Source: Acidobacteriota bacterium (GTDB lineage Bacteria > Acidobacteriota > Vicinamibacteria > Marinacidobacterales > Marinacidobacteraceae). Taken from it: a DNA stretch of 64,000 bases. Below are positions 625 to 48,422 of the stretch, in pieces. The DNA is taken from positions 26,483 to 90,482 of the forward strand of contig JAJDVI010000091.1 in NCBI GenBank assembly GCA_022826195.1. The letters are read 5' to 3'. Both the position numbers and the translations under genes were made by a program. The notes beneath the pieces were generated by a model that was given only the letters and a program-made list of their open reading frames with translations, ran no database searches and was not told the origin of the DNA. The stretch's first letter is position 1. Every line of letters starts with the position of its first letter.

Positions 625-2004
625 ATGGATCGCAAACAGTTCTCGCGCCTTGAGGACTGGTTGGCACGACCGGATCGAAAACCACTGATCCTCCGCGGCG
701 CGCGGCAGGTCGGCAAGTCCACCCTGGTGCGCCTGTTCGCCGAACGCGCGGGGCGGCCGCTCGCCGAGGTCAACCTGGAACGACGGCCCGATCTCGCCGG
801 CGCCTTCGCCCGCAACGATCCCGCCTATCTGCTACGAGTACTCGAAACGCTGCCGGGGGTCGGCCCCATCGGTCCGGACAGCGTGTTGTTTCTCGACGAG
901 ATCCAGAGCGTTCCCGAAGCGATCCCGGCCCTCCGCTACCTCCGGGAGGACGTGAGCGCCCTGCCTGTGCTGGCGGCGGGATCGCTGCTCGATTTCGCCC
1001 TCGCCGATCATCGCCTGTCCATGCCGGTGGGACGGGTCGCATACCTGCACATGGGGCCCATGACGTTCACGGAGTTCCTGAGCGCGGCGGGAGCGAAGCA
1101 ACTGGCGGCCCGGATTGCGGCGTTCGAGCTGGAAGAGGGACTGGACCCGGCAATCCACAACCGCCTGATGGGGCTGCTCAGGACCTATCTCTTCACCGGT
1201 GGCATGCCCGAAGCCATTCTTGCGTTCGTCCGTTCCGGCCGGCTAACGGACGTGAGCGAAGTGCATAACTCCATCATCGAGACCTACCGCGAGGATCTGC
1301 CCCGCTACGTCGGCTCAAGGAGCCTGCCCCGAGTCGTCAACGTGCTGAATCTGGCGGCTCGCAACGTGGGCCGCAAGGTCAAGTACGCCCGCTTCTCCAC
1401 AGAGGACCAGGCGGCAACCATCCGGGCCGACATCGAACGGCTCTGTCTGGCGCGCGTGCTGGCGAAGGTGGTCCACAGCCATGCGGGCGGACTGCCGCTG
1501 CACGCCGAGGCGGACCCGCGCGTGTTCAAGCTGCTGTTCATGGACGTGGGCCTGATGAACGCGGTCTGCGGCCTGGGCTGGACCGGCATCGAGAGCCTGG
1601 ACACCGTCCGGCTCGTGAACGAGGGCGCGATGGCGGAACAGTTCATCGGGCAGCACCTTCAGGACCTGCTCGCCGACGCGCCGAATCGCGAACTGACCTA
1701 CTGGCTGCGGGAAGGCCGCTCCGCAAACGCCGAAGTGGACTACGTGGCGGCGTTCGACGGACGCATCGTGCCGATCGAAGTGAAGGCGGGCGCGAAAGGC
1801 AGTCTCCGATCCCTGCACCAGTTCGTGGCCGAGAAGGAGGTTTCCCTTGCCGTCCGCTTCGACGCCGCGCTTCCCTCCGCCCACACCGTGACGGCCCGGG
1901 TCCAGCGGGGCGGCGTCCCGGTGGAGGTGAGCTACCGTCTGCTCTCGCTCCCCCTCTACCTGGTCGAACGCATTCCGTCCCTGCTCCGCGCCCTCCCCGC
2001 ATGA
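625..2004 (+). CDS. AAA+ ATPase with DUF4143 and C-terminal PD-(D/E)xK-like motif
   Basis: Walker A GARQVGKS, Walker [26 protein letters not shown]...PIEVK. Confidence 0.9.
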
Positions 2005-2050
2005 GCCGAAACGAGACCGCGTCGGTCACGCAAGGCAGTCCGCGAGGCGA

Positions 2051-3205
2051 TCACCGCGCGAGCGCCGCCACGAGGGCGTCCGCGACCTCGTCCACCTGGG
2101 CTTCGGTAATCACGAGCGGGGGCAGCAGCCGGATCACCGTTGACCCGGCCGGAAGCGCCAGCACGCCGCCCTCCATCAGCCTTTCCAGGGTGGGACGGCA
2201 ACGCTCCCGGAGCTCGACGCCGATCATCAGGCCCAGTTGCCGGACGGCCCGCACCCGGGCGGGCGGCTTTCGGGAGATCCGTTCCCGGAATCGCGCGCCC
2301 CGTTCCTCCGCCCGCTCCGCCAGCCGCTCGTCCTCCATGAAGCGGATGGCGGTGAGCGCCGCCGCGCAGGCGAGCGGGTTGCCGCCGAACGTGGTGCCGT
2401 GCTTGCCGATGAGCGGCGGCAGGCGGTCACCGGCGAGCACCGCGCCCATGGGGACGCCGCCGGCGATCGCCTTGGCCAGGCACAGGAGGTCCGGCTCCAC
2501 GCCGTGGTGTTCGCAGGCGAACATCCGGCCGGTGCGGCAAAAGCCCGTCTGGGACTCGTCCAGGATGAGCATCGCGCCCGCTTCGTCGCAGGCGGCGCGC
2601 ACCGCCCGGAGGTACCCGGGTTCGGCAGGCCGCACGCCGCCTTCGCCCTGGACCGGTTCCAGCAGGACCGCCGCGGTCTGGTCGCCGACCGCATGGCGCA
2701 GCCTGTCGGCGTCGCCGAACGGCACGAAGGAGAAACCCGGGACGAGGGGCGCGAAGGGTTCCCGATAGTCCTTCCGGAACGTGGCGCTCAGCGCCCCCAT
2801 GGTGCGGCCGTGGAAACCGCGCATCGCGGAGACGATCCCGGTGCGGCCGGTGGCGAGGCGGGCGAACTTGAGCGCCGCCTCCACCGCCTCCGCTCCCGAG
2901 TTGCACAGGAAGGCGCGGGTCAGCCCCGGGGGCGCGATGGAGACGAGTTTCTCGAGCAGCTCCGCCCGCCGGTCGTTGTAGAAGATGCCGGGACAGGTCA
3001 CCAGCAGCCGCGCCTGTTCGGCGATCGCCCGCGCCACCGCGGGGTTGGCGTGGCCCACGCTCGCCACGCCGATGCCCCCGACGCAGTCGAGGTAGCGGCG
3101 CCCCCGGTCGTCCCAGACCTCCGCCCCGAACCCGCGAACCAGGGTCAGCTCGCGCTTGGGATAGACCTCGAGCCCCCAGGTCCGTTCGGCTTCCCGGGAG
3201 TTCAT
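2051..3205 (-). CDS. lysJ: [LysW]-aminoadipate semialdehyde transaminase (class III PLP aminotransferase)
   Basis: [48 protein letters not shown]; lies in the lysW operon. Confidence 0.88.
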
Positions 3206-3993
3206 TCGATCACCGTCCCCCGGCCCGCGAGGGCGTCCCGGACGGGGTGCTCGACCCGCCCGTCGGCGATCACCACACGGGTCGAACCGGCCCGGACCAG
3301 CCGGCTCAGGGCGAGCATCTTCCGCTTCATTCGCCCGCTCACCAGGGCCTCGCGGCGCTCGACCTCGGTGCGCGACATGCGGGGGACGAGCGAGCCGGGG
3401 TCGTCCGGCGCCTCGAGGAAACCGGGCGCCTCGATCAGTTGGACCACCAGCTCGGCGTGGAGCTCGGCGTTGAGCGCGACCAGGATGTCGTCGTTCTCCG
3501 AGTTGATCGCGAAGCCGCGCTCGTCGAGGATGGGGATCGTCAGGACCGGCGCCAGTCCCTGGTCGAGCAGTTGCCGCAGCAGCCCCCCGTTCACCCCGGC
3601 CGGCTTGCCCGACAGGTCGCGCCGAATCAGGGTCTTGCCACCCTCCCGAACGCGGATGCCCGGGTTCCGGCGGCCCCGGACGAGGGCGCCGTCGAGGCCG
3701 GTGAGGCCGATCGCATTCACCCCGCTCCGCTGGAACAGTTCCACGATCCGCTTGTTCCGCAGGCCGGCGTAGGCCATGAGGATGAGGTCCACCGCTTCGG
3801 CGTCGGAGTACACGCTGTCGTAGCCGGACACCGAGGTGAGCACCTGCTTGTGGATGCCGAGGCGCTCACCGAGTTCGTCGCGCAGGGCGTTCGCGCCGTG
3901 GATGACCACGAAGGGCTTTCCGATGCCCGTCAGATCCTCGGTGATCCCCTCCAGGTTCATCGACGCGCCCCCGCCGACCTTGATCAGGAGCAC
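3202..3993 (-). CDS. lysZ: [LysW]-aminoadipate kinase
   Basis: Amino-acid kinase family: IKVGGG, VIHGA, SVSGY-S, GRMKRK; overlaps the lysJ start. Confidence 0.88.
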   Translation of the reverse strand: MLLIKVGGGASMNLEGITEDLTGIGKPFVVIHGANALRDELGERLGIHKQVLTSVSGYDSVYSDAEAVDLILMAYAGLRNKRIVELFQRSGVNAIGLTGLDGALVRGRRNPGIRVREGGKTLIRRDLSGKPAGVNGGLLRQLLDQGLAPVLTIPILDERGFAINSENDDILVALNAELHAELVVQLIEAPGFLEAPDDPGSLVPRMSRTEVERREALVSGRMKRKMLALSRLVRAGSTRVVIADGRVEHPVRDALAGRGTVIE

Positions 3994-3997
3994 GACG

Positions 3998-4666
3998 TCA
4001 CCCGGCCCCGGGTCCGGGGCCGAGCGTGCTGATCGTCCCGTTCGCGATGGGGGTCCACTCGGCCGGGCCGGCCCGCGCCGGATACCTCTCCGAGCACAGG
4101 ACGTGCGCGCCGCCGACGGCGGCGCGGCGCATCTGGAAGTAGTCGGGATCCTCGTTGAAGCGGCTGGCCACGGTGACGCGGAACGCGGCGTCGGTGACGA
4201 CGAGGTTCATGGCCCGCAGGTAGCGGGTGCGTTTCTCGATCAGCGGGAGCCCCCGTTCGAGGGCGCGGCACAGATCGCCGCGATCGAACCGCTTTACGAA
4301 GTTGAAGACCTTCTCGGCCCCGATCCGGCCCTGTTCCCGGATCCGCACCCCGCGGAGCTCGCCGTTGAAGAGGAACATGCGCTCCCCGTCGAAGAAGGGC
4401 ATGTTGTTCGCGACGCGGATCCCCTCGTCGCGGAAGGCGCTCCGGGCGTGGGCGAGCAGGAGGCGGGTTCGGCCCCGGGGCCGCCGGCGGTCCTCCCAGA
4501 TCGGCGTGATGTTCCGGTAGATCCGCCAGCGGCCGTCCTCGAGCCAGGCGCAGCCCCAGCCGTGTCCCTGAAACTCGCGGCTGTTCCTCGCGACCTCGGT
4601 GAACGCCTCCAGATGTTCCCCCAGGTCGAAGGGCTCGTCGCCGCGGACGCAGAGCAGCCGGCACAT
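3998..4666 (-). CDS. Class II glutamine amidotransferase / EgtC-YafJ-like Ntn hydrolase
   Basis: ATG at 4666 gives MCRLL (Cys2 nucleophile); HGWG, LAHARSA, NNMPF, FNGEL and CSE motifs. Confidence 0.85.
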   Translation of the reverse strand: MCRLLCVRGDEPFDLGEHLEAFTEVARNSREFQGHGWGCAWLEDGRWRIYRNITPIWEDRRRPRGRTRLLLAHARSAFRDEGIRVANNMPFFDGERMFLFNGELRGVRIREQGRIGAEKVFNFVKRFDRGDLCRALERGLPLIEKRTRYLRAMNLVVTDAAFRVTVASRFNEDPDYFQMRRAAVGGAHVLCSERYPARAGPAEWTPIANGTISTLGPGPGAG

Positions 4667-4698
4667 TTGGGGGATTCTGCCGTTCTCCTGGCCAGCCG

Positions 4699-5724
4699 CT
4701 AGATCGGGTGGAGGCCGGTGAACTCCAGACCGGCCGTTTCCCGGAAGCCGGACATGAGGTTGAACGCGTGGACCGCCTGTCCCGCCGCTCCCTTCGTCAG
4801 GTTGTCGAGGGCGCTCATCGCCACCACCCGCTTCGTCTCGGGGTCCCGTTCGAACCCCACGTCGCAGTAGTTCGTGCCGGCGAGGATGCCCGGTTCCGGG
4901 TAGCGGTGAATCCCGCTCCGGCCCTTCACGATCCGCACGAAGGGCTCCCCGGCATAGGCGTCGCGGTAGATCCGCCAGAGCTCCCGGTCCTCGAGGGCGC
5001 GGTCCGCGAAGACGTGACAGGTGGCGAGGACCCCGCGCACCATCTCGATCGAGGTGGCGGAAAAGTGGAGCTCCCGCACGCCGAGAGCTTCCGCGATCTC
5101 CCCCAGATGACGGTGTCCGGTGGGCTTGAACGCCCGGGCGGCGCCGCTGCGTTCCGGGTGATGACTTGCCGCGGTCCCCCGGTTGCCGGCTTCGCTGGAG
5201 CCGACCAGCACCTCGATGACGGCCGACTCCACGACTCCAGCGGCGGCCAGCGGCTTGAGGGCGAGAATGGCGGCCGTGGCGTTGCACCCGGCGCAGGCCA
5301 CCAGGTCCGCGCCGCGGAGCGCCTCCCGGTTCAGTTCGGGGATCCCGTAGACGAAGCGGCCCAGCAGGCCCGGGCAGGGGTGCGGCCCGCCGTACCAGCG
5401 CTCGTAGGCCGCGGGGTCGCGCAGCCGGAAGTCGGCGCCCAGATCGACGATCCGCCCGGCGATCCGGCGGAAGTCCTCGACCCGGCGGGAGGACTCCCCG
5501 TGGGGAAGACACACGAAGAGCACGTCGCAACCGGAGAGCTCGTCGAGACCGCGGAACTGCAGCCGGGTGGCGCCGCGCAGGTTCGGATGCACGCCGTGGG
5601 CGAACTTCCCGGCGAGGCGCTCGGAGGTGATCTCGGCTACCTCGACCTCCGGATGGCCGAGGAGCAGGCGCAGCAGCTCGCCGCCGGCGTAGCCGGAGGC
5701 GCCGGCGATGGATGCCCGGATCAT
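4699..5724 (-). CDS. lysY: [LysW]-aminoadipate-phosphate reductase (ArgC family)
   Basis: [45 protein letters not shown]; ATG at 5724 overlaps the lysX stop. Confidence 0.9.
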
Positions 5725-6557
5725 CGGCCGGCGGAAAGGAGGTAGGACACGATCCGCTCCGGGATGTCGACCCCGGTGACGCCGATGCTGTTCCGGAACT
5801 CCATCGTGTAGTTGACCTCGTTGACGAGCAGGCCTTCCGGGGTCTCGAAGAGGTCCACGGCGAGGACGCCGCCGCCCACCGCCTCCGCCGCCCTGAGCGA
5901 CAGCTCGGCGAGCTCGGCGGTGACCGGACAGTTGGAGGTCGTCGCTCCCCGCGCCGTGTTGGTGATCCAGTGATCCGAAGTGCGGTACACCGCGGCGATG
6001 CACTCATCCCCGACCACGAAGCTGCGGATGTCCCGGCCGCCCTTCTCCACGTACTTCTGGGCAAAGAAGATGGAGTGGTGGTAGCTCCCGAGGATCGCCT
6101 TGTGCTCCAGCACCGTCTCCGCCGCCTGCCGATCGTTGATCCGGGAGAGCAGCCGCCCCCAGGATCCGACCGCCGGCTTCAGCACCACCGGATAGTCGAG
6201 TTCCTCGATGGCTTCCAGGGTGGAGCCCTCGGTGAAGGCGACCCGGGTTTCGGGTTGCGGCACGCCGAACTCCTCGAGCGCGACGGCGGTCAGGATCTTG
6301 TCGCCGCACTTGCGCGAGACCTCGTAGCGGTTGACGCACCGGGTGCCCATGCTCTCGAAGAGCCGCAGGGCGTGCATCGCCCGGGAGTGGTTGATGGAGC
6401 GTTCCAGGATGACGTCAACCGCGGGCGGAGTCCGCAGGTCGAACACCAGCCGGCGGTCGTCGAGGAAGACCAGCTCGACTCCCGAACGGCGCCGCAGTTC
6501 CCGGATAAGGAGCTTTTCTTCCGGACGGATCAGGGAATGGAGGAAGCCGACCCTCAT
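5721..6557 (-). CDS. lysX: Alpha-aminoadipate--LysW ligase (RimK-type ATP-grasp)
   Basis: [20 protein letters not shown] and [10 protein letters not shown], which are LysX-type rather than ArgX-type signatures. Confidence 0.92.
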
Positions 6558-6718
6558 TCACCCCAGTCCTCCTCGGCGGTCGGGGCTTCGCCCAGGGCGA
6601 TCGGGTCGAGGCCCAGGATCTCGAGTTCGCTGCCGCACTCCGGGCACTCGAGGAGCTCCCCTTCGACGGGATCGTCGGAGATCTCGACGGCGCCGCCGCA
6701 CACCGGGCAATTCGTCAC
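6554..6718 (-). CDS. lysW: Amino-group carrier protein LysW (54 aa, missing from the ORF track)
   Basis: GTG start with GGAGGAGG SD; MTNCPVCGG...CPECGSELE...EEDWGE, with two CxxC and the C-terminal EDWGE; ATGA overlap with lysX. Confidence 0.96.
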
Positions 6719-6775
6719 TGCCTCCTCCCCTGGTCCGTCCGAAAGGCGAAGGAATCCACCCGACCTCGGGTCCGC

Positions 6776-7435
6776 TCAGCCGCCGCGCAGGATGCGGCAG
6801 GCGCGCGTGGTGTTGAAGATCCCGCAGGAACAGAAGCGCGCCATGGCTTCCGCGCAGTCTTCCGGCGCCCGCCGTCCGGTCCGCACCCAGTCGAGCATCT
6901 TGCGGGCAAAGCCGAACGAGAGCATCCCGTGGCCGCACATCGTGGAGAGCTGAAGCGTGGCGCGGTCCGGCAGCCGGTCCAGGTTCCCGAAGAACCCCAG
7001 GCTGTACTCCACGCTGTGCCGGACGATTCCCGCTTCCCGGGCCAGTTCCGCGGCCCGGTCGGTCAGCCCGCTGATGTTGATGCTGATCCCCAGATCGGCT
7101 TCCTTCAGGTCCGCCAGGAAACCCACCAGCGCCGCTTCGGTGTCGAAGACCGCCGACACCACCGTCGGAGCGTTCACCCCGGTCCGGATCGAGTCGGGGG
7201 CCAGGCGCTTTCGCCGGCGCCAGTGGGCCAGCGGGTTCAGCCGGGAGGACCGGAAGATGCCTCCCTTCGTGGCGTCGCCCAGGTTGATGGGCCCGTGGCG
7301 GAGGGCGATCTCGGTAAACCGCCGCAGCTTCTCCGGTGACCCCTCGTCGTTGATTCCCCGCGCCGCCATCGCGAACACGATGTAGTCGTCCTTGAGCGTC
7401 TCCGGGGCCCCGTAGCGGTGGAGGGTGTTCGTCAT
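6776..7435 (-). CDS. Conserved hypothetical Cys-motif protein (219 aa), probably metal or Fe-S binding
   Basis: MTNTLHRYG...DDYIVF...STMCGHG...CSCGIFN; start reassigned to ATG at 7435. Confidence 0.7.
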   Translation of the reverse strand: MTNTLHRYGAPETLKDDYIVFAMAARGINDEGSPEKLRRFTEIALRHGPINLGDATKGGIFRSSRLNPLAHWRRRKRLAPDSIRTGVNAPTVVSAVFDTEAALVGFLADLKEADLGISINISGLTDRAAELAREAGIVRHSVEYSLGFFGNLDRLPDRATLQLSTMCGHGMLSFGFARKMLDWVRTGRRAPEDCAEAMARFCSCGIFNTTRACRILRGG

Positions 7436-39323: not shown

Positions 39324-40805
39324 ATGATTGACCGAGGCCGGACGGCCCTGAGTCGAAGAGAGCTCTCACGCCCGGTCCGACTGGCGGTTTCCGACGGCCT
39401 CCTTGCCGGAGGACGGACCTTCCTCGACTACCGCTGCGGCCGCGGAGGAGACGTGCGGCAACTGCTTCGGCTTGGGTTCGACGCGACTGGTTGGGATCCG
39501 GCACACCCTTCTGGCGAAAAGCGCGAGGCGGCCGTGGTCAATCTCGGCTACGTGGTGAATGTCATCGAGGATCCGGCGGAGCGGCTAGCGACGGTCCAGG
39601 ACGCGTGGCGGCTGACCAGGGAGGTTCTAGTCGTGGCCGCCCGGCTGGACACCGACCACCGGGAACTGTCTGGCACTCCCCTCGGGGATGGGGTCCTTAC
39701 CCGGATCGGCACCTTTCAGAAGTACTTCACGCAGGACGAGCTGGTCCGCTGGCTCAGGGACTCCATCGACGAACAGCCGGTGGCAGTCGCCCCCGGAGTG
39801 TTTTACCTCTTCAGGGACACGGCCCGCCGAGAGGCGTTCGCGGCCTCGAGTTTCCGGAGCCGGGTCGCCCCGTTCTCGCTGTCGAAGTCCATCGCGCTTT
39901 ACCGGGAGAACAAGGTGGCCCTCACGGCGCTCGCCGACTTCTTCGACGAGCACGGGAGACTGCCGGCGACAGGAGAGCTCGCGGCAGCGGAAACGCTGGA
40001 GGAGGCGTTCGGTTCGGTGCGGCGAGCGTTCACGTTCCTCCGGACGGCAACTGGCCCCGAGCGGTGGGGTCTCGTCCGCAGAATCCGATCCGCCGACTTG
40101 TTGGTCTATCTGGCGCTGGCCCGTTTGCGGGGCCGTCCGCCGCTGTCGGTCTTGCCGGCAGCGCTCAAGCGCGATATCCGTTCGGTGTTCCCAAGCTATC
40201 GGTTCGCCTGTGCGGCGGCGGACACCCTCCTGTTCCGAGCCGGCAACGCCCAGGCCGTTGAGGCCGCATGCCAGGAGTCCCGGGTGGGGAAGCTGACCCC
40301 CAGCGCGCTCTACGTCCACGAGTCCGCCCTCGCCAGCCTGCCGCCGGTGCTGCGCGTGTACGAAGGGTGCGCCCGGACGCATGTTGGCTCTGTGGAGGGG
40401 GCGAACGTGATCAAGCTCTACCGGCAGCGGTCCCAAGTCTCATATCTGGCGTATCCCGACTTCGACACGGACCCGCACCCGGTGCTCTCCCGGTCGACGA
40501 CAACCCGCCTGGGGTCGCTGGAGATTCACGTGCGGCGCTACGAGCGGTCGACGAATCCACCCATCCTGCACCGGAAGGAACTCTTCGTCCATCCGTCCTA
40601 TGTTCATCACCGGAAGTTCGCTCGCCTGACCTGCCAAGAGGAGGAACACGGTCTATACGAGGGCTCTGCGTCCATCGGACACGCAGAGCAATGGCGCGCC
40701 GCCTTGGCTGAACGAAGACTCGGCTACCTCGGCCACGACCTTGTACCGATCGACTCCATTCGCGCCTCAGACACTGATCCCGTCTCCACGACGACGTGTG
40801 GCTAG
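39324..40805 (+). CDS. DNA phosphorothioation-associated putative methyltransferase
   Basis: RTALSRRELSRPV, FLDY(R)CGRGGD, GWDP, VNLGYVVNVIED, TFQKYFTQ-EL, YPDFD-DPHP and NPPILHRKE. Confidence 0.88.
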   Translation: MIDRGRTALSRRELSRPVRLAVSDGLLAGGRTFLDYRCGRGGDVRQLLRLGFDATGWDPAHPSGEKREAAVVNLGYVVNVIEDPAERLATVQDAWRLTREVLVVAARLDTDHRELSGTPLGDGVLTRIGTFQKYFTQDELVRWLRDSIDEQPVAVAPGVFYLFRDTARREAFAASSFRSRVAPFSLSKSIALYRENKVALTALADFFDEHGRLPATGELAAAETLEEAFGSVRRAFTFLRTATGPERWGLVRRIRSADLLVYLALARLRGRPPLSVLPAALKRDIRSVFPSYRFACAAADTLLFRAGNAQAVEAACQESRVGKLTPSALYVHESALASLPPVLRVYEGCARTHVGSVEGANVIKLYRQRSQVSYLAYPDFDTDPHPVLSRSTTTRLGSLEIHVRRYERSTNPPILHRKELFVHPSYVHHRKFARLTCQEEEHGLYEGSASIGHAEQWRAALAERRLGYLGHDLVPIDSIRASDTDPVSTTTCG

Positions 40806-40944
40806 GCCGTGGCTCCGGATTCCGACTCGAAGCCACGAGACGATGTCTCGCCCGTCCGGCACATCAATCTTCACGGATCACGACGGCCAAGAAGCGGGCT
40901 CCTGAACGCTCTTGGCCCGCCCTCACCCGAATCGCTCCGACGCG

Positions 40945-40974
40945 TTGACCGGTCGCCTCCCGCCCGGCTAGACT
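40945..40974 (+). promoter_or_regulatory. Sigma70-type promoter upstream of the dndA-like operon
   Basis: TTGACC-N18-TAGACT. Confidence 0.55.
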
Positions 40975-41325
40975 CGCCCACATCGGGAAGCACAGGGTGA
41001 AGAGCAGCGCTCTAGCCGTGACACTGGCTTCAGCGGAGCTTTCGTCCTCCTCACCGAAGCTTCCGGCACAACGGATCCGGGGCACAAAATGCGGTTATTC
41101 CGTTCGGCACGTCACGCCGGGCGGCCCATGAGTCGTTCCACCGAGGAGCCCGTGAAATGTTGGTCCTGATGTGCCGCCATGCCCGAGAAAGCGGCCACCC
41201 ATGCACCCGGTCTGACCGGGAGTCGCCATGCATGGGGGCCGCCCAGGCTCGCGGACCATCACGTCGCTGCGCTGGTGCCATCCGGCCTGATCGAGGGCGG
41301 CTCTCGTCCTGATCGGGAAGATCTA

Positions 41326-42534
41326 ATGCAAGAACCCCCATCTGCATCGCGGAGAGGCACTCCAGCAGTAGCAGGCGTCCCCAAGGGCGCGTACCTCGAC
41401 TACGCCGCCACGACACCGGTCGACCCGAGTGTGGCCAAAACCATGAGCCGCTTTCTGACGCGGGGTGGAGTCTTCGGAAACCCCTCCTCCATCACCCACC
41501 GGTTCGGGAACGCCGCTCGGGAAGCCGTCGATCGGGCTCGGGGCCAAGTCGCTGCACTGATCGGCGCAACGCCGGGGGAGATTGTTTGGACCTCCGGCGC
41601 GACGGAGTCCATCAATCTGGCAATCAAGGGAATAATGCTGTCCTCCTCTGTGCCCGGACGGCACCTTGTAGTTACCGCTGTCGAGCACAAAGCCACGCTC
41701 GATGCGGCCGGCTGGCTTGGTTCCTCCGGCTTTGATGTCTCGATCGTGGCCCCGGACCCGGGGGGCCGGATCACTGCGAAACGGATCCAGCGGGCGATCC
41801 GGGAAGACACGGCCCTTGTCTCGCTCATGCATGTAAACAATGAGCTGGGCACGGTGACGGATGTCGGTTCCATCGCCCGCGTCCTTCAGGACGCCGGCGT
41901 TTTGTTCCATGTGGATGCCGCACAGAGCGCGGCTCGGCTTGCCCTGGACGTGTCACGCCTCGGGGTGGATCTCCTCTCGGTCAGCGCTCACAAAATGTAT
42001 GGTCCCAAGGGGATCGGCGCCCTCTTCGTCCGGCGGGGCCTCCAAGCGGCTCTCGTGCCGCAGGTTCATGGAGGGGGGCAAGAGGCAGGCCTACGTCCCG
42101 GCACACTTCCGACCCACCAAATCGCCGGGATGGGCGAAGCGGCAAGTCTCGTCGCTCAGCACCGTGAGGAGGACAGAGCCCGCATCGCAGAATTGGACGA
42201 CTGTCTTCTCCGTCATCTCACCCGGATTCCGGGCAGCGTAGTCAACGGCTCCAGACGCGACCGGATCCCGGGAATCCTCAACGTAGCCTTCGCTGGCGTC
42301 ACGGCGGAGTCCCTGATGGTTGCGCTTGGGGACGTCGCCATCTCGAATGGTTCCGCTTGCACTACGGCGACCCTCGAACCGTCTCACGTGCTGCTCGCAT
42401 TGGGGATGAGTCGAGCAAGAGCGTTCGCGTCGCTACGCTTCAGCATTGGGCGATTCACGACGAGGGCGGAAATCGATCTCGCAGGCGCCCGCGTCCGGGA
42501 AGCGGTGTCTTCGCTCAGGAGCCTCGCGGCATGA
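41326..42534 (+). CDS. dndA: Cysteine desulfurase (DndA/IscS family)
   Basis: YLDYAATTP, GNPSS, SGATES, HVDAAQ, SAHKMYGPKG and SNGSACT; ATGA-coupled to dndC. Confidence 0.85.
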   Translation: MQEPPSASRRGTPAVAGVPKGAYLDYAATTPVDPSVAKTMSRFLTRGGVFGNPSSITHRFGNAAREAVDRARGQVAALIGATPGEIVWTSGATESINLAIKGIMLSSSVPGRHLVVTAVEHKATLDAAGWLGSSGFDVSIVAPDPGGRITAKRIQRAIREDTALVSLMHVNNELGTVTDVGSIARVLQDAGVLFHVDAAQSAARLALDVSRLGVDLLSVSAHKMYGPKGIGALFVRRGLQAALVPQVHGGGQEAGLRPGTLPTHQIAGMGEAASLVAQHREEDRARIAELDDCLLRHLTRIPGSVVNGSRRDRIPGILNVAFAGVTAESLMVALGDVAISNGSACTTATLEPSHVLLALGMSRARAFASLRFSIGRFTTRAEIDLAGARVREAVSSLRSLAA

Positions 42535-43700
42535 GATCGGTGGTTCCGCCTCCCATTCCGAACGGTCTGGTGACACTTCCGCAGCGGCTGATCGGCATCC
42601 GGGAGGTGCTACGGAGGGAATACAGCCGGGAGCACAACCATCCGTGGCTCGTCGCTTACTCCGGCGGGAAGGACTCGACGCTTCTGCTCCAGCTTGTTTG
42701 GGAGATGCTCGCCAAGCTTCCGCCAAGCAACCGGCGTCGCGAGGTCATTGTGGTCGGCAATGACACGCTCGTGGAGTCACCTCTCGTGATCGAACACCTT
42801 CGGGAATCGCTCCAGGTCATCCACGCCGCCGCTCTCGACAACGATCTGCCTTTCGAGGTGCGCATCACCACCCCGGCCATTGACCAGACGTTCTGGGTGA
42901 GCGTCATCGGACGCGGGTACATACCGCCGACCCGGAACTTCCGATGGTGCACCGATCGGATGAAAATCCTTCCCACGACCCGGCTCCTACGGAACATCGT
43001 CCGGCACAGCGGCGGTGCCGTGCTGCTCATTGGGACCAGGCGGGCGGAGTCGCAGCACCGGCGGCGGGGCATGGACAAGCGGAACGTGTCGGCAGCTTCC
43101 GTGAACCAGCACGACTCGGTGCCTGAATGCAAGATGTTCGCGCCTCTCGCCGATCTCGCCGACAACGACGTGTGGATGGTCCTCATGCAGCGGGATCCAC
43201 CCTGGGGCGGCACCCACCGGCGTCTCATTACCCTGTATCGGAATGCCGGTGGCGGAGAGTGTCCGCTAGTGATGTCTCAGGAAGATGCCCCTTCTTGTGG
43301 CAGTTCATCGCCCCGGTTTGGCTGCTGGACCTGCACGGTCGTAAAGAAGGACCGGAGCCTGCAGGGACTGATTGACTCCGGTCGCCACGACACCGGGAGA
43401 ATGGAGGCCTTGTCCGACTTCCGGGAGTGGCTGCTGGAACTGAGGGAAGACAATGCCAACCGGCTGTCGGTGCGCCGGGACGGCAACCCGCGCAACCGTC
43501 CCGACGGTTCCCGCGTCTTCGGTCCGTTTCGGTTGGATGTCCGCCGCCAGATCCTTGACCGGCTCCAGGCGATGGAGCGTGCTTTGGGGGAACCGCTCAT
43601 CACGCCCGCCGAAATCGAGTGTATTGAGGATGTCTGGTGGCGCGACGAGATCCACGAGTCGGGCCGTGCCGCTCTGCGGGAAGCGGTGGCCGTCGGATGA
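42531..43700 (+). CDS. dndC: DNA phosphorothioation sulfurtransferase DndC (PAPS-reductase family, Fe-S)
   Basis: PWLVAYSGGKDST, DTLVESP, IGRGY-PP--FRWCTDRMKI, ECPLV, RFGCWTCTVV and GPF. Confidence 0.9.
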   Translation: MRSVVPPPIPNGLVTLPQRLIGIREVLRREYSREHNHPWLVAYSGGKDSTLLLQLVWEMLAKLPPSNRRREVIVVGNDTLVESPLVIEHLRESLQVIHAAALDNDLPFEVRITTPAIDQTFWVSVIGRGYIPPTRNFRWCTDRMKILPTTRLLRNIVRHSGGAVLLIGTRRAESQHRRRGMDKRNVSAASVNQHDSVPECKMFAPLADLADNDVWMVLMQRDPPWGGTHRRLITLYRNAGGGECPLVMSQEDAPSCGSSSPRFGCWTCTVVKKDRSLQGLIDSGRHDTGRMEALSDFREWLLELREDNANRLSVRRDGNPRNRPDGSRVFGPFRLDVRRQILDRLQAMERALGEPLITPAEIECIEDVWWRDEIHESGRAALREAVAVG

Positions 43701-45460
43701 CGCAGATCCGGTCCAAGGTCCGGCTCGTCTCCAAACTCTTCCTACAGGGACGCTTCGCTGTGCCTTGGCACCAGCGGTACTACGACTGGACGGAGGAACT
43801 AGTCGAAGAATTACTCGTGGATCTGAAGGAAGCTGTGAACGAGGATCGCGCCTCCTACTTCTTGGGGTCGATCATGTTGATCGCGCGCGGAGAGAACGAG
43901 TGGGAGATCAACGACGGACAGCAGCGCCTGATCACGCTCTCGCTGATCTTCGCTGCTCTAGGTCGGCGGTTCGGAGTCTGGGGCAAACCGGAGGCACCGC
44001 GTGAAATTCAGTGTTTGCGGCATTTGTTCGCAGTGGAACAGCACGACCTGCCTGACCCGGCCGATACGACGCGGAATGAACCGCGGATCAGGCCGCCTCG
44101 GAAGGATCGACTCCAGTTCATGCAGATCATCCGGGGCAACGATATCGGGACCAACGGCAAGATGACGGCAGCTTGGAACCGCATTGACCTCTTCGTCAAC
44201 GCGATGAATCGGCCCGACGTTGTGCAGTTCTTTGAGTTTCTGACTCGCAAGGTCGAGATCGCCGTCCTTGATGTGCCTCCGGGCGAGGACGCCAACGCGG
44301 TGTTCGAGGCCCTGAACGGACGAGGAAAGCAGCTCGATGACCTAGACCTGATACGGAACCACCTGTATTCGTATTTCTCGGCGTCAGATGACCACGTCCG
44401 TCGGGGCACGATTCACGATGCCCTCGAACGCGCCGTGATCCGTAATCGAACGAGCCAACGGGCGCAGGAGTACTTCCGATGCTTCCTTCAACGGCGCTAT
44501 GGCTATCTTCAGAAGGCACGTTTCTATCGAGAAACACGTACACGAGTCCGCGCCGAGGCGTCCGGCCCAAACGGTGTGGCGCGTGTGTACGAACTCATCA
44601 ACGCCTTGGCTGACCCAGCTGGGATCGAGCTGTTCCGCACGATGACAGCGACCAATCCTAGCCCTGACCTCGTGTCCGGCTTCCAAAGGGCATCCGGCAC
44701 ATCAGGCCGCAAACGCTCCTTGCCGGATTTTCTATCCGAGCTGCGGACGTACCGCGTGGTCTACCCTCTACTGTTTGCTTTGCTGTACCGATATGTCACG
44801 GCGGGCGACGCTGCGAAGAGAGCCATCGCCCGCGCAGCACATTCTGCGATCCGCGACATGGCATCTTTCGTAATGCGTGTCGCGTTCTCGACTGCCAAAT
44901 TCGAACCATCCCGCTATGAGGCAGCATTCGCCAATCACGCTCGCGAGGTTGCAGACGCCAAGAGCATCGAGAGCATGCGCCTCCGTTCCCTGCTGATGGA
45001 TTGCGATGAGGATGGAGTCATGAACAACGTCCGGTTCCTAGCCAGGATGCAAGGCGTCCAGATGAAGGATGAGCGTCGCGCCAAGCGCTACTTGTTCGCC
45101 ATTAACGCGAACGAACAGGCGGATGCCAGCGCGCTGAGCTTGCAGGGCTGTACCCTCGAACACGTGTTGCCCAAGTCGAAAGAGCACTGGGCCGATTGGA
45201 CCGGCTTTCGGGATATCGGAGTAGACCTGACGGACTGGACCCTCCGACCGGGCAACCTGACGTTGATGGGAAGGGGTGACAATCACCCCGGCAAGCGGTT
45301 TAACTCCAGTTTCGATGCCAAACGCGCCGCGTTCCGTGAGAGTTCGTTCTCAATCACGCGGCGTCTCGCAGAATTGGAGGAGTGGACACCTCAGATGATT
45401 CAGGATCGGTCGACGGAACTCGCCAAGGCAGCCGCGAGGATCTGGTGTTTCTCGAACTAG
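43697..45460 (+). CDS. DUF262-DUF1524 (GmrSD/SspE-like) NTPase-HNH nuclease
   Basis: QRYYDW, DGQQRL, FEALNGRG; C-terminal TLEHVLP...GNLTL...N; ATGA-coupled to dndC. Confidence 0.88.
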   Translation: MTQIRSKVRLVSKLFLQGRFAVPWHQRYYDWTEELVEELLVDLKEAVNEDRASYFLGSIMLIARGENEWEINDGQQRLITLSLIFAALGRRFGVWGKPEAPREIQCLRHLFAVEQHDLPDPADTTRNEPRIRPPRKDRLQFMQIIRGNDIGTNGKMTAAWNRIDLFVNAMNRPDVVQFFEFLTRKVEIAVLDVPPGEDANAVFEALNGRGKQLDDLDLIRNHLYSYFSASDDHVRRGTIHDALERAVIRNRTSQRAQEYFRCFLQRRYGYLQKARFYRETRTRVRAEASGPNGVARVYELINALADPAGIELFRTMTATNPSPDLVSGFQRASGTSGRKRSLPDFLSELRTYRVVYPLLFALLYRYVTAGDAAKRAIARAAHSAIRDMASFVMRVAFSTAKFEPSRYEAAFANHAREVADAKSIESMRLRSLLMDCDEDGVMNNVRFLARMQGVQMKDERRAKRYLFAINANEQADASALSLQGCTLEHVLPKSKEHWADWTGFRDIGVDLTDWTLRPGNLTLMGRGDNHPGKRFNSSFDAKRAAFRESSFSITRRLAELEEWTPQMIQDRSTELAKAAARIWCFSN

Positions 45461-45479
45461 ACGAACCCTTCCGCTCCAA

Positions 45480-46853
45480 GTGAGGCCGATGGACGCGCGC
45501 CGATTGGCCGGTTCGCGGCCTGCACTGCCTGCCCCACTCCACAAGTTTCAACGGGAGGGTATCTCCTTCCTCCTCGAGTCCGAAGGCGCCCTGCTGGCGG
45601 ACGAGATGGGCCTGGGGAAGACAGTGCAGACATCCGTCGCCCTTGATCTGCTCTTGGCGAGGGAGCGAGCAATCGAGCGAGCTCTGATCGTCGCGCCGGC
45701 TTCCCTTGTTCCCAATTGGATGGAAGAACTGGCCCGTTGGGCACCATCGCTGACGGTGAGGCGCGCCGACGGGGGGGCTACGAATCGACAGGCCCTCTAC
45801 ATGCTCCCGGTCCCAGTACTGGTGTGTTCTTACGAGCAGCTGCGTGCTGATGCCCTGGAGCGTATTCCGTCGGGGACCTTCGACATCGTCGTGTTAGACG
45901 AGGCACAGCGCATCAAGAACCCAGACTCCACAACGGCGCTCGCGTGCCGCATCCTCTCTCGAAAGCGGTCATGGGCGCTTTCCGCGACGCCGTTCGAAAA
46001 CAGTGACCGGGATGTCGCGTCGATCCTTGCCTTCGTTGCCCCCAAGCTGGACGTCGAGTCGTCAAGGTCCCATCTCGCGGAGGCCCTGAAAGCAGTGATG
46101 CTTCGCCGCCGGAAGGCCGAAGTCAGACATGAGCTACCGCCGGTAATCACCCAGGACCTCAAGCTAGAGCTGTCCGTCCCGCAGCACCGGGCCTACATCG
46201 CGCTGTGGGCGGAGCAGGAGGAAGCGGCTCGCAACGCCGCTGCGACAGGAGAGGCGGCAGTGCTCCTCGGCCTGATCACGCGCCTGAAGCTGGTGTGCAA
46301 CTTCGATCCCGAAACCGGAGGTTCGTCGAAGCTTGAGGCTCTCCGGGACGTGATCGACAGTGCCGGGCCGGATGCCAGAGTCCTGGTTTTCTCCCAGTTC
46401 GTGAGGACCCTGAAGAGGATCGCCAAGGGCATTGGCGTGGACCACGACTTCCTCGTTGGGTCGATGCGATCAGCGGCACGGCACGGGGCCATCGCGCGCT
46501 TCCAGACCGGTCGAACCCCACGAGTCCTGTTGGCGTCGCTTCGCGCAGCCGGGGTGGGGCTCAACCTCGGTGCGGCATCCCATGTGGTGCTCTTCGACCG
46601 GTGGTGGAACCCTGCCGTGGAGTCCCAAGCCGTATACCATGCCCACCGCTTCGACCGGGCGGCCCCCCTTCATCTGGTGCGATTCTTGGTGGTGGATTCG
46701 GTCGAGGAGCGCATCGCCGCCATCCTCGACGAGAAGGAGGCTCTCCGAGATAGACTTCTGGAGTCTGCCGACGGTTCGAGACGGCGTCCGACGGCGCGTG
46801 AGCTAGCGAGAATTCTGGGCCTCCCGGTTACGGAACCGGGGTTGGATTCCTGA
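45480..46853 (+). CDS. Minimal SNF2-family ATPase
   Basis: LADEMGLGKT, DEAQRIKN, SATPFEN, LRRRK, VFSQF, GVGLNL and DRWWNP; start is 45480 or 45489. Confidence 0.9.
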   Translation: MRPMDARRLAGSRPALPAPLHKFQREGISFLLESEGALLADEMGLGKTVQTSVALDLLLARERAIERALIVAPASLVPNWMEELARWAPSLTVRRADGGATNRQALYMLPVPVLVCSYEQLRADALERIPSGTFDIVVLDEAQRIKNPDSTTALACRILSRKRSWALSATPFENSDRDVASILAFVAPKLDVESSRSHLAEALKAVMLRRRKAEVRHELPPVITQDLKLELSVPQHRAYIALWAEQEEAARNAAATGEAAVLLGLITRLKLVCNFDPETGGSSKLEALRDVIDSAGPDARVLVFSQFVRTLKRIAKGIGVDHDFLVGSMRSAARHGAIARFQTGRTPRVLLASLRAAGVGLNLGAASHVVLFDRWWNPAVESQAVYHAHRFDRAAPLHLVRFLVVDSVEERIAAILDEKEALRDRLLESADGSRRRPTARELARILGLPVTEPGLDS

Positions 46854-46881
46854 CTGAGAACCCAAGAGGAGGTACGGAGTC

Positions 46882-47712: not shown

Positions 47713-48422
47713 TGTTCCCGGGCCTGGACGCGCTCGGCCTAGGGCGGCTCCGAATGTCCGTCGGATACGGTCGTGCCAAAAGACACCGTCCGTTTTCCCC
47801 GGTTGAGGTCGCGGAATACCTAGATAAGGCTCGCCGTGAGGGGTTGTCCGCCAAGGCCAGTGCAGCGTTGATAGGCATCGACGTGACCGGAGTTGGCCGC
47901 TTTCTGCGCCTTCTTGAACTGCCGGAGGAAACACAGCATCTGGTGGACTGGGGGTCGCGCACCGGCTTCATCGCCTTTTCGGCGGCCACCGAAGTCTTGC
48001 GCCTCCCGAGCACGGATGACCGGCGGCTCCTAGCCCATGAGGCGGTCCGCGCGAACCTGAACTCAAAGGAGATTCGCCAGGTTGGCCAGCTCCGGATTCG
48101 ATCTGGTCGCCCGATCCGTGAATGCGTGGACGAAGTGCTGGGGATGCGCCCGACCTACAAAGTGACCTACGTGTTCGTGGGGTCGGTCGGTGACCCGGCG
48201 CTTCAGCAGCGCCTTGCCCAAGTGAGCCAAGCCGAACGGGACGGCATTCTTGAGGACGCGCTTGGCCGAGCGGACCTAGCCGATGTCGGTGGTCGCCTCG
48301 GCAAGCGCTTTTTCACACTCGTCGGCGACGAACGGTTCGGTGAAGCGATGAAGAAACACGGTAAGGGGAGACTGGAATCCACAATGCGTGAGTACATTGA
48401 CCAAGCCGCAGCCCCGGGGTGA
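47712..48422 (+). CDS. Hypothetical protein with ParB-central-like HTH
   Basis: TGATG coupling; FSPVEVA...GLS----AALIG-----VGRFLRLLELP. Confidence 0.65.
   Translation: MFPGLDALGLGRLRMSVGYGRAKRHRPFSPVEVAEYLDKARREGLSAKASAALIGIDVTGVGRFLRLLELPEETQHLVDWGSRTGFIAFSAATEVLRLPSTDDRRLLAHEAVRANLNSKEIRQVGQLRIRSGRPIRECVDEVLGMRPTYKVTYVFVGSVGDPALQQRLAQVSQAERDGILEDALGRADLADVGGRLGKRFFTLVGDERFGEAMKKHGKGRLESTMREYIDQAAAPG

Follow-up and report, generated by a model that had tools for sequence, protein, structure and literature searches.

The lysW operon and its embedded 222-aa gene

The window, by which we mean the whole analysed stretch of 64,000 nucleotides, belongs to an Acidobacteriota genome of 3.85 Mb that is 92.95% complete. 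On its minus strand, six genes are tightly packed in the order lysW, lysX, lysY, a 222-aa gene whose product begins with MCRLL, lysZ and lysJ:

6554..6718, minus strand: lysW, amino-group carrier protein (54 aa, ending in EEDWGE; PF21344, 61.8 bits; TIGR01206, 57.3 bits, cut-off 53.2)
5721..6557, minus strand: lysX, ATP-grasp ligase (TIGR02144 LysX, 318.7 bits, cut-off 275.6; RimK and LysX_preATP_grasp domains)
4699..5724, minus strand: lysY, ArgC-type reductase, 341 aa (argC TIGR01850, 368 bits, cut-off 233.6)
3998..4666, minus strand: putative Cys-Ntn amidohydrolase P0001, 222 aa, candidate hydrolase of LysW-gamma-lysine and/or the corresponding ornithine adduct (EgtC-like Ntn fold, conserved residues, operon context)
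3202..3993, minus strand: lysZ, [LysW]-aminoadipate kinase, GTG start (NF010659, 235.7 bits, cut-off 223)
2051..3205, minus strand: lysJ, class III aminotransferase (TIGR00707, 425.5 bits, cut-off 410.05; PF00202, 365.5 bits)

LysW, LysX, LysZ, LysY and LysJ each exceeded a family cut-off, LysJ through TIGR00707; against NF042418, the equivalog model of Thermus LysJ, it reached 467.7 bits, under the cut-off of 700. The open reading frame of the embedded Ntn gene runs from an ATG at 4666 to a TGA at 3998-4000 and encodes 222 aa with the N-terminus MCRLLCVRGDEPF. ATGA overlaps were observed at three junctions (lysW/lysX, lysX/lysY and lysZ/lysJ), the start ATG of lysY at 5724 overlapping the lysX stop. 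The Ntn gene is preceded by a 32-nt spacer with AGGAGA and is separated from lysZ by a gap of 4 nt; these gene junctions are the layout of a single operon. The reading frames and the family profiles confirmed the gene order described in the initial annotation, in which the Ntn gene sits between lysY and lysZ and the lysW operon of the window is devoid of any M20 gene. Across the whole genome, this lysW was the sole LysW over the cut-off, and tblastn recovered no paralog of lysY or lysZ, no other homolog of P0001 and no close paralog of lysX, for which one other match was obtained (65 residues, 38% identical, C19, E 3e-4).

Contigs from a sponge metatranscriptome library covered 29 of the 30 bins of the region 1800-7000 at ~98-99% identity, and the junctions on either side of the Ntn gene were each bridged by one RNA-library contig (3410-4249 for lysZ/Ntn and 4302-4872 for Ntn/lysY). 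The RNA runs X2 and X9 accounted for only small parts of the stretch. Immediately beyond the operon, the bin at 1800-1973 was left uncovered by contigs in three RNA runs, which is not evidence of a transcript end.

A pattern scan of 185,579 species genomes with a 20-row alignment yielded 576 loci that tblastn confirmed, from which the best 80 were kept. In these best 80 of the 576 loci, which span three phyla, lysY or lysX lies directly upstream of the Ntn gene in 79, the exception (L090) carrying lysX elsewhere on its chromosome; all six genes occur in the window's order in 66, and in none does an M20 gene lie 7 kb or less from the Ntn gene. The association with lysW operons was likewise observed in all 13 Ntn loci of the Acidobacteriota sample that could be read. 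The LysK-type operons of Acidobacteriota exhibited the order W-X-Y-Z-J-K in 10 of the 12 fetched loci. Three acidobacterial genomes (G043, G063 and G144) hold a divergent Ntn member, 26-31% identical, as the last gene after lysJ, and in these operons the Ntn gene occupies the terminal slot of LysK. In the LysX tree, the 31 operons with an embedded Ntn gene formed a single clade (99/93), and the window's copy nests with those of Gemmatimonadota and Gammaproteobacteria; genomes of its own class carry LysK-type operons. The operon, including the Ntn gene, looks to have been inherited or transferred as a unit, and because it moves as one unit, few independent events, perhaps two, would stand behind the co-occurrence counts reported here.

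Fold and conserved residues of the 222-aa protein

The AlphaFold model of P0001 (pLDDT 94.8) found its closest PDB structures in EgtC (4zfl, 4zfj and 4zfk; E 9e-12, TM 0.77, 19% identity), followed by 3mdn, 1te5 and the glutaminase domains of GlmS and PurF. EgtC was also the best NCBIfam match, though below the cut-off (TIGR03442, 34.8 bits against 218.65) and with only residues 35-108 aligned. The match to Pfam GATase_4 (PF13230; 16.3 bits, E 0.0049) stayed below the gathering score of 23, and a few P0001 homologs carry a precomputed match to this family. Among the Pfam and NCBIfam profiles, P0001 gave no M20, ArgE or DapE matches. Because P0001 fails the EgtC and Pfam cut-offs despite an EgtC-like Cys-Ntn fold, its group is a family separate from EgtC, the likeness being one of shared fold and not of membership; the initial description of the gene as EgtC-like hence holds for the fold and does not extend to the EgtC family itself.

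Of 3041 candidates, 2413 proteins matched P0001 at E <= 0.001, with 90% identity in the top matches, and 322 representatives at 50% identity were obtained under the same E-value; by sequence comparison, the 222-aa gene is a real one. Automated annotation currently labels its relatives 'hypothetical protein' or 'glutamine amidotransferase'.

Across 59 diverse homologs, down to 26% identity, the residues C2, R3, R75, N101, G113, G116 and S192 were invariant, and M1, H73 and G102 nearly so (G102 in at least 90%). The catalytic set of class II amidotransferases, consisting of Cys, Arg and Asn-Gly, is present in the P0001 family as C2, R75 and N101-G102, which in alignments with EgtC and 3mdn fall on the RSA and NG motifs. 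Their roles as the class II Cys, the alpha-carboxylate-binding Arg and the Asn-Gly oxyanion hole are presumed here from GlmS and PurF. The class II Asp for the free alpha-amino group, located in the S/T-D-S/T-E motif, is not present in the P0001 family: in the profile alignment, 'STDSEV' of 3mdn stands opposite 'eIGAeK' of the family, and the Asp position is that of the invariant G116. We take the replaced Asp to be the equivalent of GlmS D123 and PurF D127, the residue that binds glutamine by its free alpha-amino group. In a Glu at the C-terminus of a protein, the alpha-carboxylate is free but the alpha-amino group is not, and the change of Asp to Gly with the Arg kept is a hint, read from the alignment, that the substrate may be such a residue.

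LysK and the Ntn family across genomes

Pfam Peptidase_M20 returned 19 matches in the whole genome. None of the six whole-genome matches to TIGR01902 (LysK) reached the cut-off of 163.1 bits, the best scoring 76.7. The best LysK candidate, a 337-aa ArgE/DapE-like M20 protein on contig C86, stayed under every NCBIfam cut-off, with 97.8 bits against the [LysW]-lysine hydrolase model NF003367 (cut-off 363). Full-length orthologs of this protein (41-44% identity) occur in three genomes, one of which (G248) also has a true LysK, and in the other two (G073 and G110) the searches detected no LysW and no Ntn gene; by these comparisons, the C86 protein is not tied to LysW. For this one genome, a lysK may lie in the part missing from the 93%-complete assembly, and a promiscuous enzyme among the 19 M20-family matches could release lysine.

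The distribution of the two genes was compared in a sample of 402 genomes (251 Acidobacteriota and 151 Gemmatimonadota), of which 24 carried the Ntn gene, 17 carried LysK and none carried both. Among the Acidobacteriota, 16 had a strong Ntn match (E <= 1.8e-45, a threshold set after seeing the gap in E-values from 1e-45 to 1e-20), 15 had LysK over the cut-off and none had both; the corresponding counts for Gemmatimonadota were 8, 2 and 0. The 23 Acidobacteriota genomes with a LysW over the cut-off consisted of 13 with LysK, 8 with the Ntn gene, one with a degenerate operon and one with a solitary lysW, and LysK over the cut-off was found in none of five further Ntn-carrying genomes. Weak LysW HMM matches (30-47 bits) were considered as possible operons devoid of both LysK and Ntn and were rejected: of the 16 loci fetched, 15 encode zinc-ribbon proteins that stand alone and have long acidic tails, LysX, LysY, LysZ, LysJ, LysK and Ntn all being absent within 7 kb, and the remaining one gave no tblastn match. 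These weak matches are not counterexamples to the complementarity of LysK and Ntn.

The initial annotation had proposed that the Ntn gene performs the LysK step, and had suggested that the genome be searched for lysK and that the association with lysW operons and the mutual exclusivity with lysK be surveyed. The search returned no lysK over the cut-off, the association proved to be conserved, and the exclusivity was borne out in the genomes sampled. Context, exclusivity and the lack of a lysK over the cut-off, taken comparatively, support the Ntn gene as a candidate for this step.

The end product of the operon may differ from lysine. The genome has lysA (388 bits) and argG-argH, and no ArgB or ArgC paralogs were found in it; because of this combination, the operon may supply arginine, either in place of lysine or in addition to it. 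The search for the aminoadipate pathway recovered a single clear leuA plus a divergent HMGL-like gene, the latter below the cut-off against IPMS (190.7 bits), nifV homocitrate synthase (181.7 bits) and LysS (166 bits), together with a fused LeuD-like and aconitase-large-subunit protein (hacA_fam, 247.6 bits, below 385.7). In pairwise BLAST, both HMGL genes were alike in their identity (25-26%) to the operon-embedded homocitrate-synthase-like gene of G043. The best dapA match in the 93%-complete genome scored 104 bits, below the cut-off of 206; its sole carbamoyltransferase is pyrB, located in a pyrR-pyrB-pyrC cluster, and argF was not found.

Proposed release of the amino acid from LysW

LysX loads the substrate onto the gamma-carboxyl of the C-terminal Glu of LysW. 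We consider it likely that the 222-aa protein is a Cys-Ntn amidohydrolase and a candidate for doing the job of LysK in this operon, and most likely it would cut the finished amino acid off LysW by a chemistry other than that of LysK. In the proposed mechanism, removal of the initiator Met would expose Cys2 as both nucleophile and general base, and the enzyme would bind the acidic C-terminal tail of LysW, with the last residue held at its free alpha-carboxylate by the invariant R75 and the oxyanion hole provided by Asn101-Gly102. Cys2 would attack the gamma-glutamyl isopeptide through which the finished amino acid is bound, by its alpha-amino group, to LysW-Glu54; the amino acid would leave as lysine, possibly as ornithine too, and hydrolysis of the gamma-glutamyl thioester would regenerate LysW. 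We infer in this scheme the substrate, the bond cleaved and a discrimination against the early intermediate LysW-gamma-aminoadipate. In related operons with a Gln-ending LysW, the same chemistry would first deamidate this Gln to Glu, a step that is not needed in the window because its LysW ends in Glu.

Co-folding of Ntn residues 2-222 with LysW, which had been put forward in the initial annotation, resulted in a median score of 0.56 (runs of 0.56, 0.63 and 0.53) against 0.05 for the best of three controls, with a contact agreement of at least 98% between runs and a partner pLDDT of at least 83. The threshold applied asks for a score of 0.32 or more that also exceeds each control by 0.20 or more; 116 of 157 solved complexes passed it, as did 2 of 215 mismatched pairs. 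At scores of 0.60 or less, it was passed by only 18 of the 157 complexes and by both mismatches; the model lends weak support to a pairing of the Ntn protein with LysW.

The last residue of LysW bears both on this reading and on its strongest competitor. LysW ends in Gln in 14 of 83 Ntn-type operons against 0 of 11 LysK-type operons; for Acidobacteriota the counts are 7 of 11 and 0 of 11, and among the best 80 loci, 7 of the 72 complete LysW sequences end in EDWGQ and the other 65 in Glu. A Gln-ending carrier needs a gamma-amidase at the exact position of the proposed cleavage, and the Gln-terminal carriers point to an amidase acting on the last residue of LysW. Their presence only in Ntn-type operons of the sample would also suit an enzyme that merely matures the carrier (Gln to Glu of a pro-LysW), or has another accessory role on LysW such as clearing wrong adducts, lysine then being released by an unrecognised hydrolase, for instance an M20 enzyme, for which the 19 M20 matches of the genome and the 337-aa protein with its similarity to NF003367 would offer candidates. 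We regard this explanation as unlikely, since the LysW of the window and 65 of the 72 complete sequences end in Glu and need no maturation, yet the Ntn gene is kept with all catalytic residues. Moreover, the C86 protein is far apart from the LysK model (97.8 vs 363 bits) and is found both in two genomes with no detected LysW and alongside a true LysK, none of the best 80 loci has an M20 gene at 7 kb or less from its Ntn gene, and LysK and Ntn never occur together in the 402 genomes, which is unexpected for an add-on.

Considerably less probable is that the protein acts as the glutaminase partner of an amidotransferase, or as an amidase of free glutamine or gamma-glutamyl small molecules, and owes its place in the operon to regulation or history. 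The weak GATase_4 similarity, the name 'predicted glutamine amidotransferase' given to relatives by one source and the GlmS and PurF glutaminase domains among the fold relatives are in line with such a role, but P0001 has no synthase domain and no conserved adjoining partner gene, carries an invariant Gly at the position of the alpha-amino-binding Asp and is distributed in a manner complementary to LysK; furthermore, because LysJ is present, the LysW pathway has no step needing ammonia from glutamine. We give almost no credence to P0001 being EgtC proper, the gamma-glutamyl-hercynylcysteine sulfoxide hydrolase, working with the adjoining egtB (481.5 bits) and egtD (324.9 bits) genes on contig C1, both over their cut-offs: EgtC is the top structural and NCBIfam match and tblastn found no second P0001 homolog in the genome, but the TIGR03442 score is far below its cut-off, the gene lies in the lysW operon and the egtB-egtD pair on another contig with no adjoining Ntn gene, EgtD at E <= 1e-5 was detected in 0 of 5 other genomes with the Ntn family, and EgtB of the acidobacterial type works with cysteine itself and does not require EgtC.

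The preferred reading, in which the Ntn enzyme releases the finished amino acid from LysW, can be widened into one that we hold tentatively, at somewhat short of an even chance, namely that the Cys-Ntn family is a dual-purpose 'LysW gamma-amidase', at once a general non-orthologous LysK substitute in one widespread operon type and the deamidating activator of a Gln-capped pro-carrier. One enzyme would in that case switch the carrier on and recycle it, and ornithine may be released as well as lysine in genomes that, like this one, have no ArgB/ArgC paralogs. The LysW route, which leads to both lysine and arginine, is a textbook example of pathways that share an origin, and to our knowledge the M20 enzyme LysK is so far the only one assigned to its last step. 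If the proposal is true, an apparent pathway gap would be closed in the species genomes with the Ntn family (the 576 confirmed loci in 185,579), the automated annotation of this family would be corrected, the Ntn superfamily would gain a protein-directed gamma-glutamyl isopeptidase, and an explanation would be at hand for those carriers whose encoded terminal Gln could not be used by LysX. Our literature search found no published description of an Ntn or amidotransferase-like LysW hydrolase; the matching passages of PMC12998189 and of the GapMind 2026 preprint (10.1101/2024.10.14.618325) make no mention of an Ntn-type LysW hydrolase.

Among known systems, LysK of Thermus thermophilus and Sulfolobus (TIGR01902, NF003367) would share with the Ntn enzyme the reaction, on the gamma-glutamyl isopeptide by which lysine or ornithine is attached, through its alpha-amino group, to the C-terminal Glu of LysW, as well as the position in the pathway, and it has the same last-gene place as the Ntn gene of three related operons. 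In contrast, LysK is a di-metal M20 metallopeptidase, whereas the Ntn protein is predicted to be a Cys-Ntn alpha-beta-beta-alpha sandwich of unrelated sequence and fold that would use metal-free covalent thioester catalysis, and its gene is embedded between lysY and lysZ in the window, unlike LysK genes at the operon end. EgtC (4zfj, 4zfk and 4zfl) resembles the Ntn protein in being a stand-alone domain of ~220-230 aa, in the Cys2 nucleophile and the GWG, RSA and NG motifs common to both within the aligned part, and in a chemistry, gamma-glutamyl amide cleavage, that is the one proposed here; however, the sequence alignment is limited to approximately residues 29-115, the proposed substrate is a protein C-terminus as opposed to a small molecule whose alpha-amino group is free, and the Ntn family is not linked to egt genes. 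The uncharacterised stand-alone Ntn domains 3mdn (Silicibacter pomeroyi), 1te5 (Pseudomonas aeruginosa), YafJ-like and GATase_4 are of the same general kind as P0001, and 3mdn is the best PDB profile-to-sequence match of its family (E 1.8e-10, profile positions 21-213). Proteins of the 3mdn/1te5 type have no known link to LysW, and 3mdn keeps the Asp of 'TDSEV' where the P0001 family has an invariant Gly.

Organization and conservation of the lysW operon

The minus strand of the window (2051-6718) encodes six genes in operon-like packing, in which ATGA overlaps join lysW/lysX, lysX/lysY, and lysZ/lysJ, and the Ntn gene is separated from its neighbors by 32 nt ahead and 4 nt behind:

6554-6718, minus strand: lysW, 54 aa, C-terminal EEDWGE; TIGR01206, 57.3 bits (cut-off 53.2)
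5721-6557, minus strand: lysX; TIGR02144, 318.7 bits (cut-off 275.6)
4699-5724, minus strand: lysY; argC model, 368 bits
3998-4666, minus strand: Ntn gene, 222 aa, N-terminal MCRLL; below the cut-offs of its only family matches
3202-3993, minus strand: lysZ; NF010659 ([LysW]-aminoadipate kinase), 235.7 bits (cut-off 223)
2051-3205, minus strand: lysJ

No M20 gene was present in this operon, and the genes and their family scores bear out the order lysW-lysX-lysY-Ntn-lysZ-lysJ without an M20 lysK, as described in the initial annotation. Contigs of a sponge metatranscriptome library, ~98-99% identical to the window, covered 29 of the 30 bins of positions 1800-7000, and single contigs bridged lysZ/Ntn and Ntn/lysY; such contigs cannot reveal strand or level, nor establish that one transcript is involved, and carried-over DNA may contribute. 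Elsewhere in the window, an AAA_14/DUF4143 ATPase gene (625-2004, plus strand, 459 aa) converges on the lysJ end, and within 39324-49419 the G+C content drops to 0.60-0.65 at 40-48 kb vs ~0.70 elsewhere.

A pattern scan of 185,579 species, each represented by a single genome, yielded 587 matching stretches, 576 of them confirmed by tblastn, and the window's six proteins were placed by tblastn on the best 80 loci, which came from Acidobacteriota, Gemmatimonadota, and Gammaproteobacteria. Among these best 80 of 576, the nearest relatives at the window locus exhibited 97% identity and were labeled Vicinamibacteria or Acidobacteriota. The expected association with lysW operons was conserved, with the Ntn gene immediately preceded by lysY or lysX in 79 of the best 80 loci; all six genes followed the window order in 66, and an M20 gene within 7 kb of the Ntn gene was found in none. 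The other 14 include at least three loci that end at contig ends (L058, L088, L102) and eight gammaproteobacterial loci with non-adjacent lysZ and lysJ. At locus L090 the Ntn gene stands alone, and the same genome holds lysX elsewhere (81% identical). In nine gammaproteobacterial loci (L083, L087, L094, L095, L098, L099, L101, L104, L105), the Ntn gene was the last operon gene detected, with no lysZ or lysJ found by tblastn within 7 kb downstream; at L087, only lysY and the Ntn gene were detected. In another locus (L029:4961-5254), the lysW frame extends to 98 aa after ...ELEIS, probably through a frameshift or assembly error in the metagenome-assembled genome.

Two kinds of lysW operon were distinguished in an evenly drawn sample of 251 Acidobacteriota genomes. 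The LysK-type order, lysW-lysX-lysY-lysZ-lysJ-lysK, was found in 10 of 12 fetched loci (those of genomes G168 and G059 being the other two), and the Ntn-type order, lysW...lysX-lysY-Ntn-lysZ-lysJ, in 10 loci; the Ntn locus of G027 stops at a contig end. In three genomes (G043, G063, G144), a divergent Ntn member, 26-31% identical to that of the window, closes the operon after lysJ, which is the place of LysK. The G043 operon also carries, between lysY and lysZ, a gene whose best NCBIfam match is homocitrate synthase (TIGR02146, 280 bits, below the cut-off of 413.55), and G063 has a similar-sized gap at the same place; the homocitrate-synthase-like gene links the G043 operon type with the aminoadipate pathway. 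In G104, a cluster of argD-like, argB-like, and M20 genes (L111:1-3682) is located within a few kb of the Ntn-type operon.

A LysX tree (43 rows) grouped the 31 operons with an embedded Ntn gene in one supported clade (99/93) and the two operons of the G043/G063 type in another. The window LysX nested among Gemmatimonadota and Gammaproteobacteria, whereas LysK-type operons were carried by sampled genomes of the window's own class. This pattern suggests that the Ntn-type operon is passed on as a single unit, both by inheritance and by horizontal transfer. The co-occurrence counts are accordingly not very independent, with few origins behind them. The data show long-term retention of the Ntn gene in the operon (Ntn identity down to 26%, LysX identity down to 46%), two different Ntn insertion points, and, within a class, the substitution of one operon type for the other.

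Mutual exclusivity with LysK and alternative assignments

The Acidobacteriota genomes were searched with the Ntn family profile and the LysW and LysK models. Strong, near full-length Ntn matches (E <= 1.8e-45, a threshold chosen after a gap between 1e-45 and 1e-20 was seen) occurred in 16 of the 251 genomes, the window's own included, and five others had partial matches only (1e-11 to 1e-13). LysK exceeded its cut-off in 15, and no genome held both (G024, flagged unpublished, is counted in these tallies and belongs to neither positive set). The 23 genomes with LysW over cut-off comprised 13 with LysK, eight with the Ntn gene, one with a degenerate operon bearing lysX and lysK fragments (G168), and one with a solitary lysW (G059). 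Among 151 Gemmatimonadota genomes, eight carried the Ntn gene, two LysK, and none both, so that the anticipated mutual exclusivity held in both samples; five additional carriers of the Ntn gene, drawn from two phyla, likewise gave no LysK over cut-off.

Many weaker LysW matches in the Acidobacteriota sample were possible operons with neither enzyme, and 16 were fetched. One gave no match, and the other 15 were rejected as such operons, each being a lone zinc-ribbon protein (55-83 aa) that resembles LysW, with no LysX, LysY, LysZ, or LysJ within 7 kb (L137-L151, from genomes G034, G199, G113, G016, G050, G221, G210, G220, G149, G238, G009, G129, G087, G201, and G178). Their tails consist of a long Asp/Glu run, often with a final Tyr or other aromatic residue, instead of EDWGE, and they seem to form a small-protein family of their own that is apparently widespread.

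The window genome (3.85 Mb, 107 contigs, 92.95% complete) has 19 Peptidase_M20 matches, and a genome-wide search for lysK found six TIGR01902 matches, none reaching 163.1 bits (best 76.7). It is possible that an M20 protein encoded elsewhere in this genome releases the product through promiscuous activity. The best candidate for a hidden LysK, a 337-aa M20 protein adjoining fabF on contig C86, matches the DapE, ArgE, and LysK models, but far below all these cut-offs (e.g., NF003367, 97.8 bits vs 363). Since its full-length orthologs (41-44% identity) occur in G248, whose lysW operon encodes a true LysK, and in G073 and G110, where LysW and the Ntn gene were not found, the C86 protein is, on this comparison, not linked to LysW. 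The M20 protein of the L111 cluster is 31% identical to it.

An identity as EgtC was rejected: egtB (481.5 bits) and egtD (324.9 bits) are indeed neighbors on a different contig of the window genome, but no Ntn gene adjoins them, EgtD was found in none of five other genomes with the Ntn family, and the family fails the EgtC model (TIGR03442) and resides in lysW operons. Neither egtA nor egtC adjoins the egtB-egtD pair itself (contig C1:4987-7415, L153), whose members both exceed their NCBIfam cut-offs, and the gene that follows (309 aa) has no family match. This arrangement suggests a two-gene ergothioneine route in the window organism.

The Ntn family and the terminus of its putative carrier substrate

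The "EgtC-like" label of the initial annotation stands for the fold and fails for family membership. The AlphaFold model (pLDDT 94.8, pTM 0.91) best matched the EgtC structures 4zfl, 4zfj, and 4zfk (E 9e-12, TM 0.77, 19% identity), followed by 3mdn and 1te5, which are uncharacterized class II amidotransferase-domain proteins, and then by the GlmS and PurF glutaminase domains. The protein scored below cut-off both with TIGR03442 (34.8 bits vs 218.65) and with Pfam GATase_4 (16.3 bits, gathering score 23). Its relatives, 2413 at E <= 0.001 among 3041 candidates, are called "hypothetical protein" or "predicted glutamine amidotransferase" where the source names them, and the cluster representatives number 322 at E <= 0.001, including 65 at E <= 1e-30. 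This is a distinct, large, and mostly unnamed family within the class II amidotransferase/Ntn superfamily.

In an alignment of 59 full-length members, with identity down to 26%, C2, R3, G38, W57, R75, P90, N101, G113, G116, and S192 were invariant and M1, H73, F100, and G102 nearly so. With these residues and the EgtC/class II fold matches, the protein has the catalytic set expected of a Cys-Ntn amidase, namely the N-terminal Cys, the Arg of "HARSA", and the Asn-Gly of "FNG". Profile alignment to 3mdn placed "eIGAeK" of the Ntn family opposite "STDSEV", with the invariant G116 at the Asp position. In glutamine-using relatives this Asp (GlmS D123, PurF D127) binds glutamine through its free alpha-amino group, and the conserved Arg binds the alpha-carboxylate. 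Since a protein's C-terminal Glu offers a free alpha-carboxylate and no free alpha-amino group, retention of the Arg with loss of the Asp would be the pattern predicted by a LysW-tail substrate.

The last residue of the carrier points to the same position. Among 72 complete LysW sequences in the best 80 Ntn loci, 65 end in EDWGE and seven, all gammaproteobacterial, in EDWGQ; eight of the nine loci with a terminal Ntn gene have LysW, and seven of these are exactly the Gln-ending ones (L098 ends in Glu). In the Acidobacteriota sample, LysW ends in Gln in 7 of 11 Ntn-type operons and in Glu in all 11 LysK-type operons. LysX, as established for Thermus, attaches its substrate at the gamma-carboxyl of the C-terminal Glu of LysW, so a Gln-ended LysW is unusable until deamidated. 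Class II glutaminase-type enzymes deamidate Gln, and this deamidation would take place at the very atom that later bears the lysine isopeptide. The Gln ends lend independent support to the view that the enzyme acts at the gamma position of the last residue. The window LysW ends in Glu, and therefore only the release role applies there.

Ntn residues 2-222 and LysW, each supplied as an alignment, were also co-folded, giving a median score of 0.56 (runs 0.56, 0.63, 0.53) against 0.05 for the best of three controls, with contact agreement of at least 98% and partner pLDDT of at least 83. Of 157 solved complexes, 116 passed the mark used (score >= 0.32, with every control at least 0.20 lower), as did 2 of 215 mismatched pairs; those passing at scores <= 0.60 were only 18 of the 157 and both mismatches. 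The co-fold thus lends weak support to the predicted binding of LysW.

Product of the operon and comparison with known systems

The NCBIfam assignment of LysZ as an aminoadipate kinase and the homocitrate-synthase-like gene in the related operon are in favor of lysine as a possible product. In the window genome, arginine/lysine gene sites lie on contigs C94, C24, and C58; lysA (388 bits) and argG-argH are present, no clear dapA was found (best match below cut-off), and homocitrate synthase and homoaconitase are represented by ambiguous candidates only. No ornithine carbamoyltransferase was found there, the only carbamoyltransferase being pyrB, and tblastn with LysY and LysZ detected no paralogs, that with LysX only a marginal match of 65 residues. 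Bifunctional Lys/Orn LysW systems occur in Sulfolobus and Thermococcus, and such a system is possible in the window organism, in which case the Ntn enzyme would release both lysine and ornithine.

In the window genome, the leuA gene (C58:48584-49792) matches the ~500-position LeuA models only up to about position 385, and a separate 178-aa ORF lies between leuA and leuC (C58:47972-48508), so that the two may reflect a split or frameshifted regulatory domain. A 671-aa protein (C42:23362-25377; L136:3363-5378) carries a LeuD/DmdB-like small-subunit domain (48-205) fused ahead of an aconitase/homoaconitase-type large subunit (231-657) and is a candidate homoaconitase, below all cut-offs.

Together, the operon linkage, the exclusivity with LysK, the occupation of LysK's slot, and the Gln ends support the claim that the Ntn gene performs the LysK step, an activity that we infer, and comparison gives good support to the putative takeover of the LysK role by a non-orthologous Cys-Ntn amidase. 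No published description of an Ntn-type LysW hydrolase was found in the literature searched, in passages of a 2025 Thermus LysW paper (PMC12998189), or in passages of the GapMind 2026 preprint (10.1101/2024.10.14.618325). The Ntn protein would do the same job as LysK without belonging to the LysK family, and it has its fold in common with EgtC but is not EgtC.
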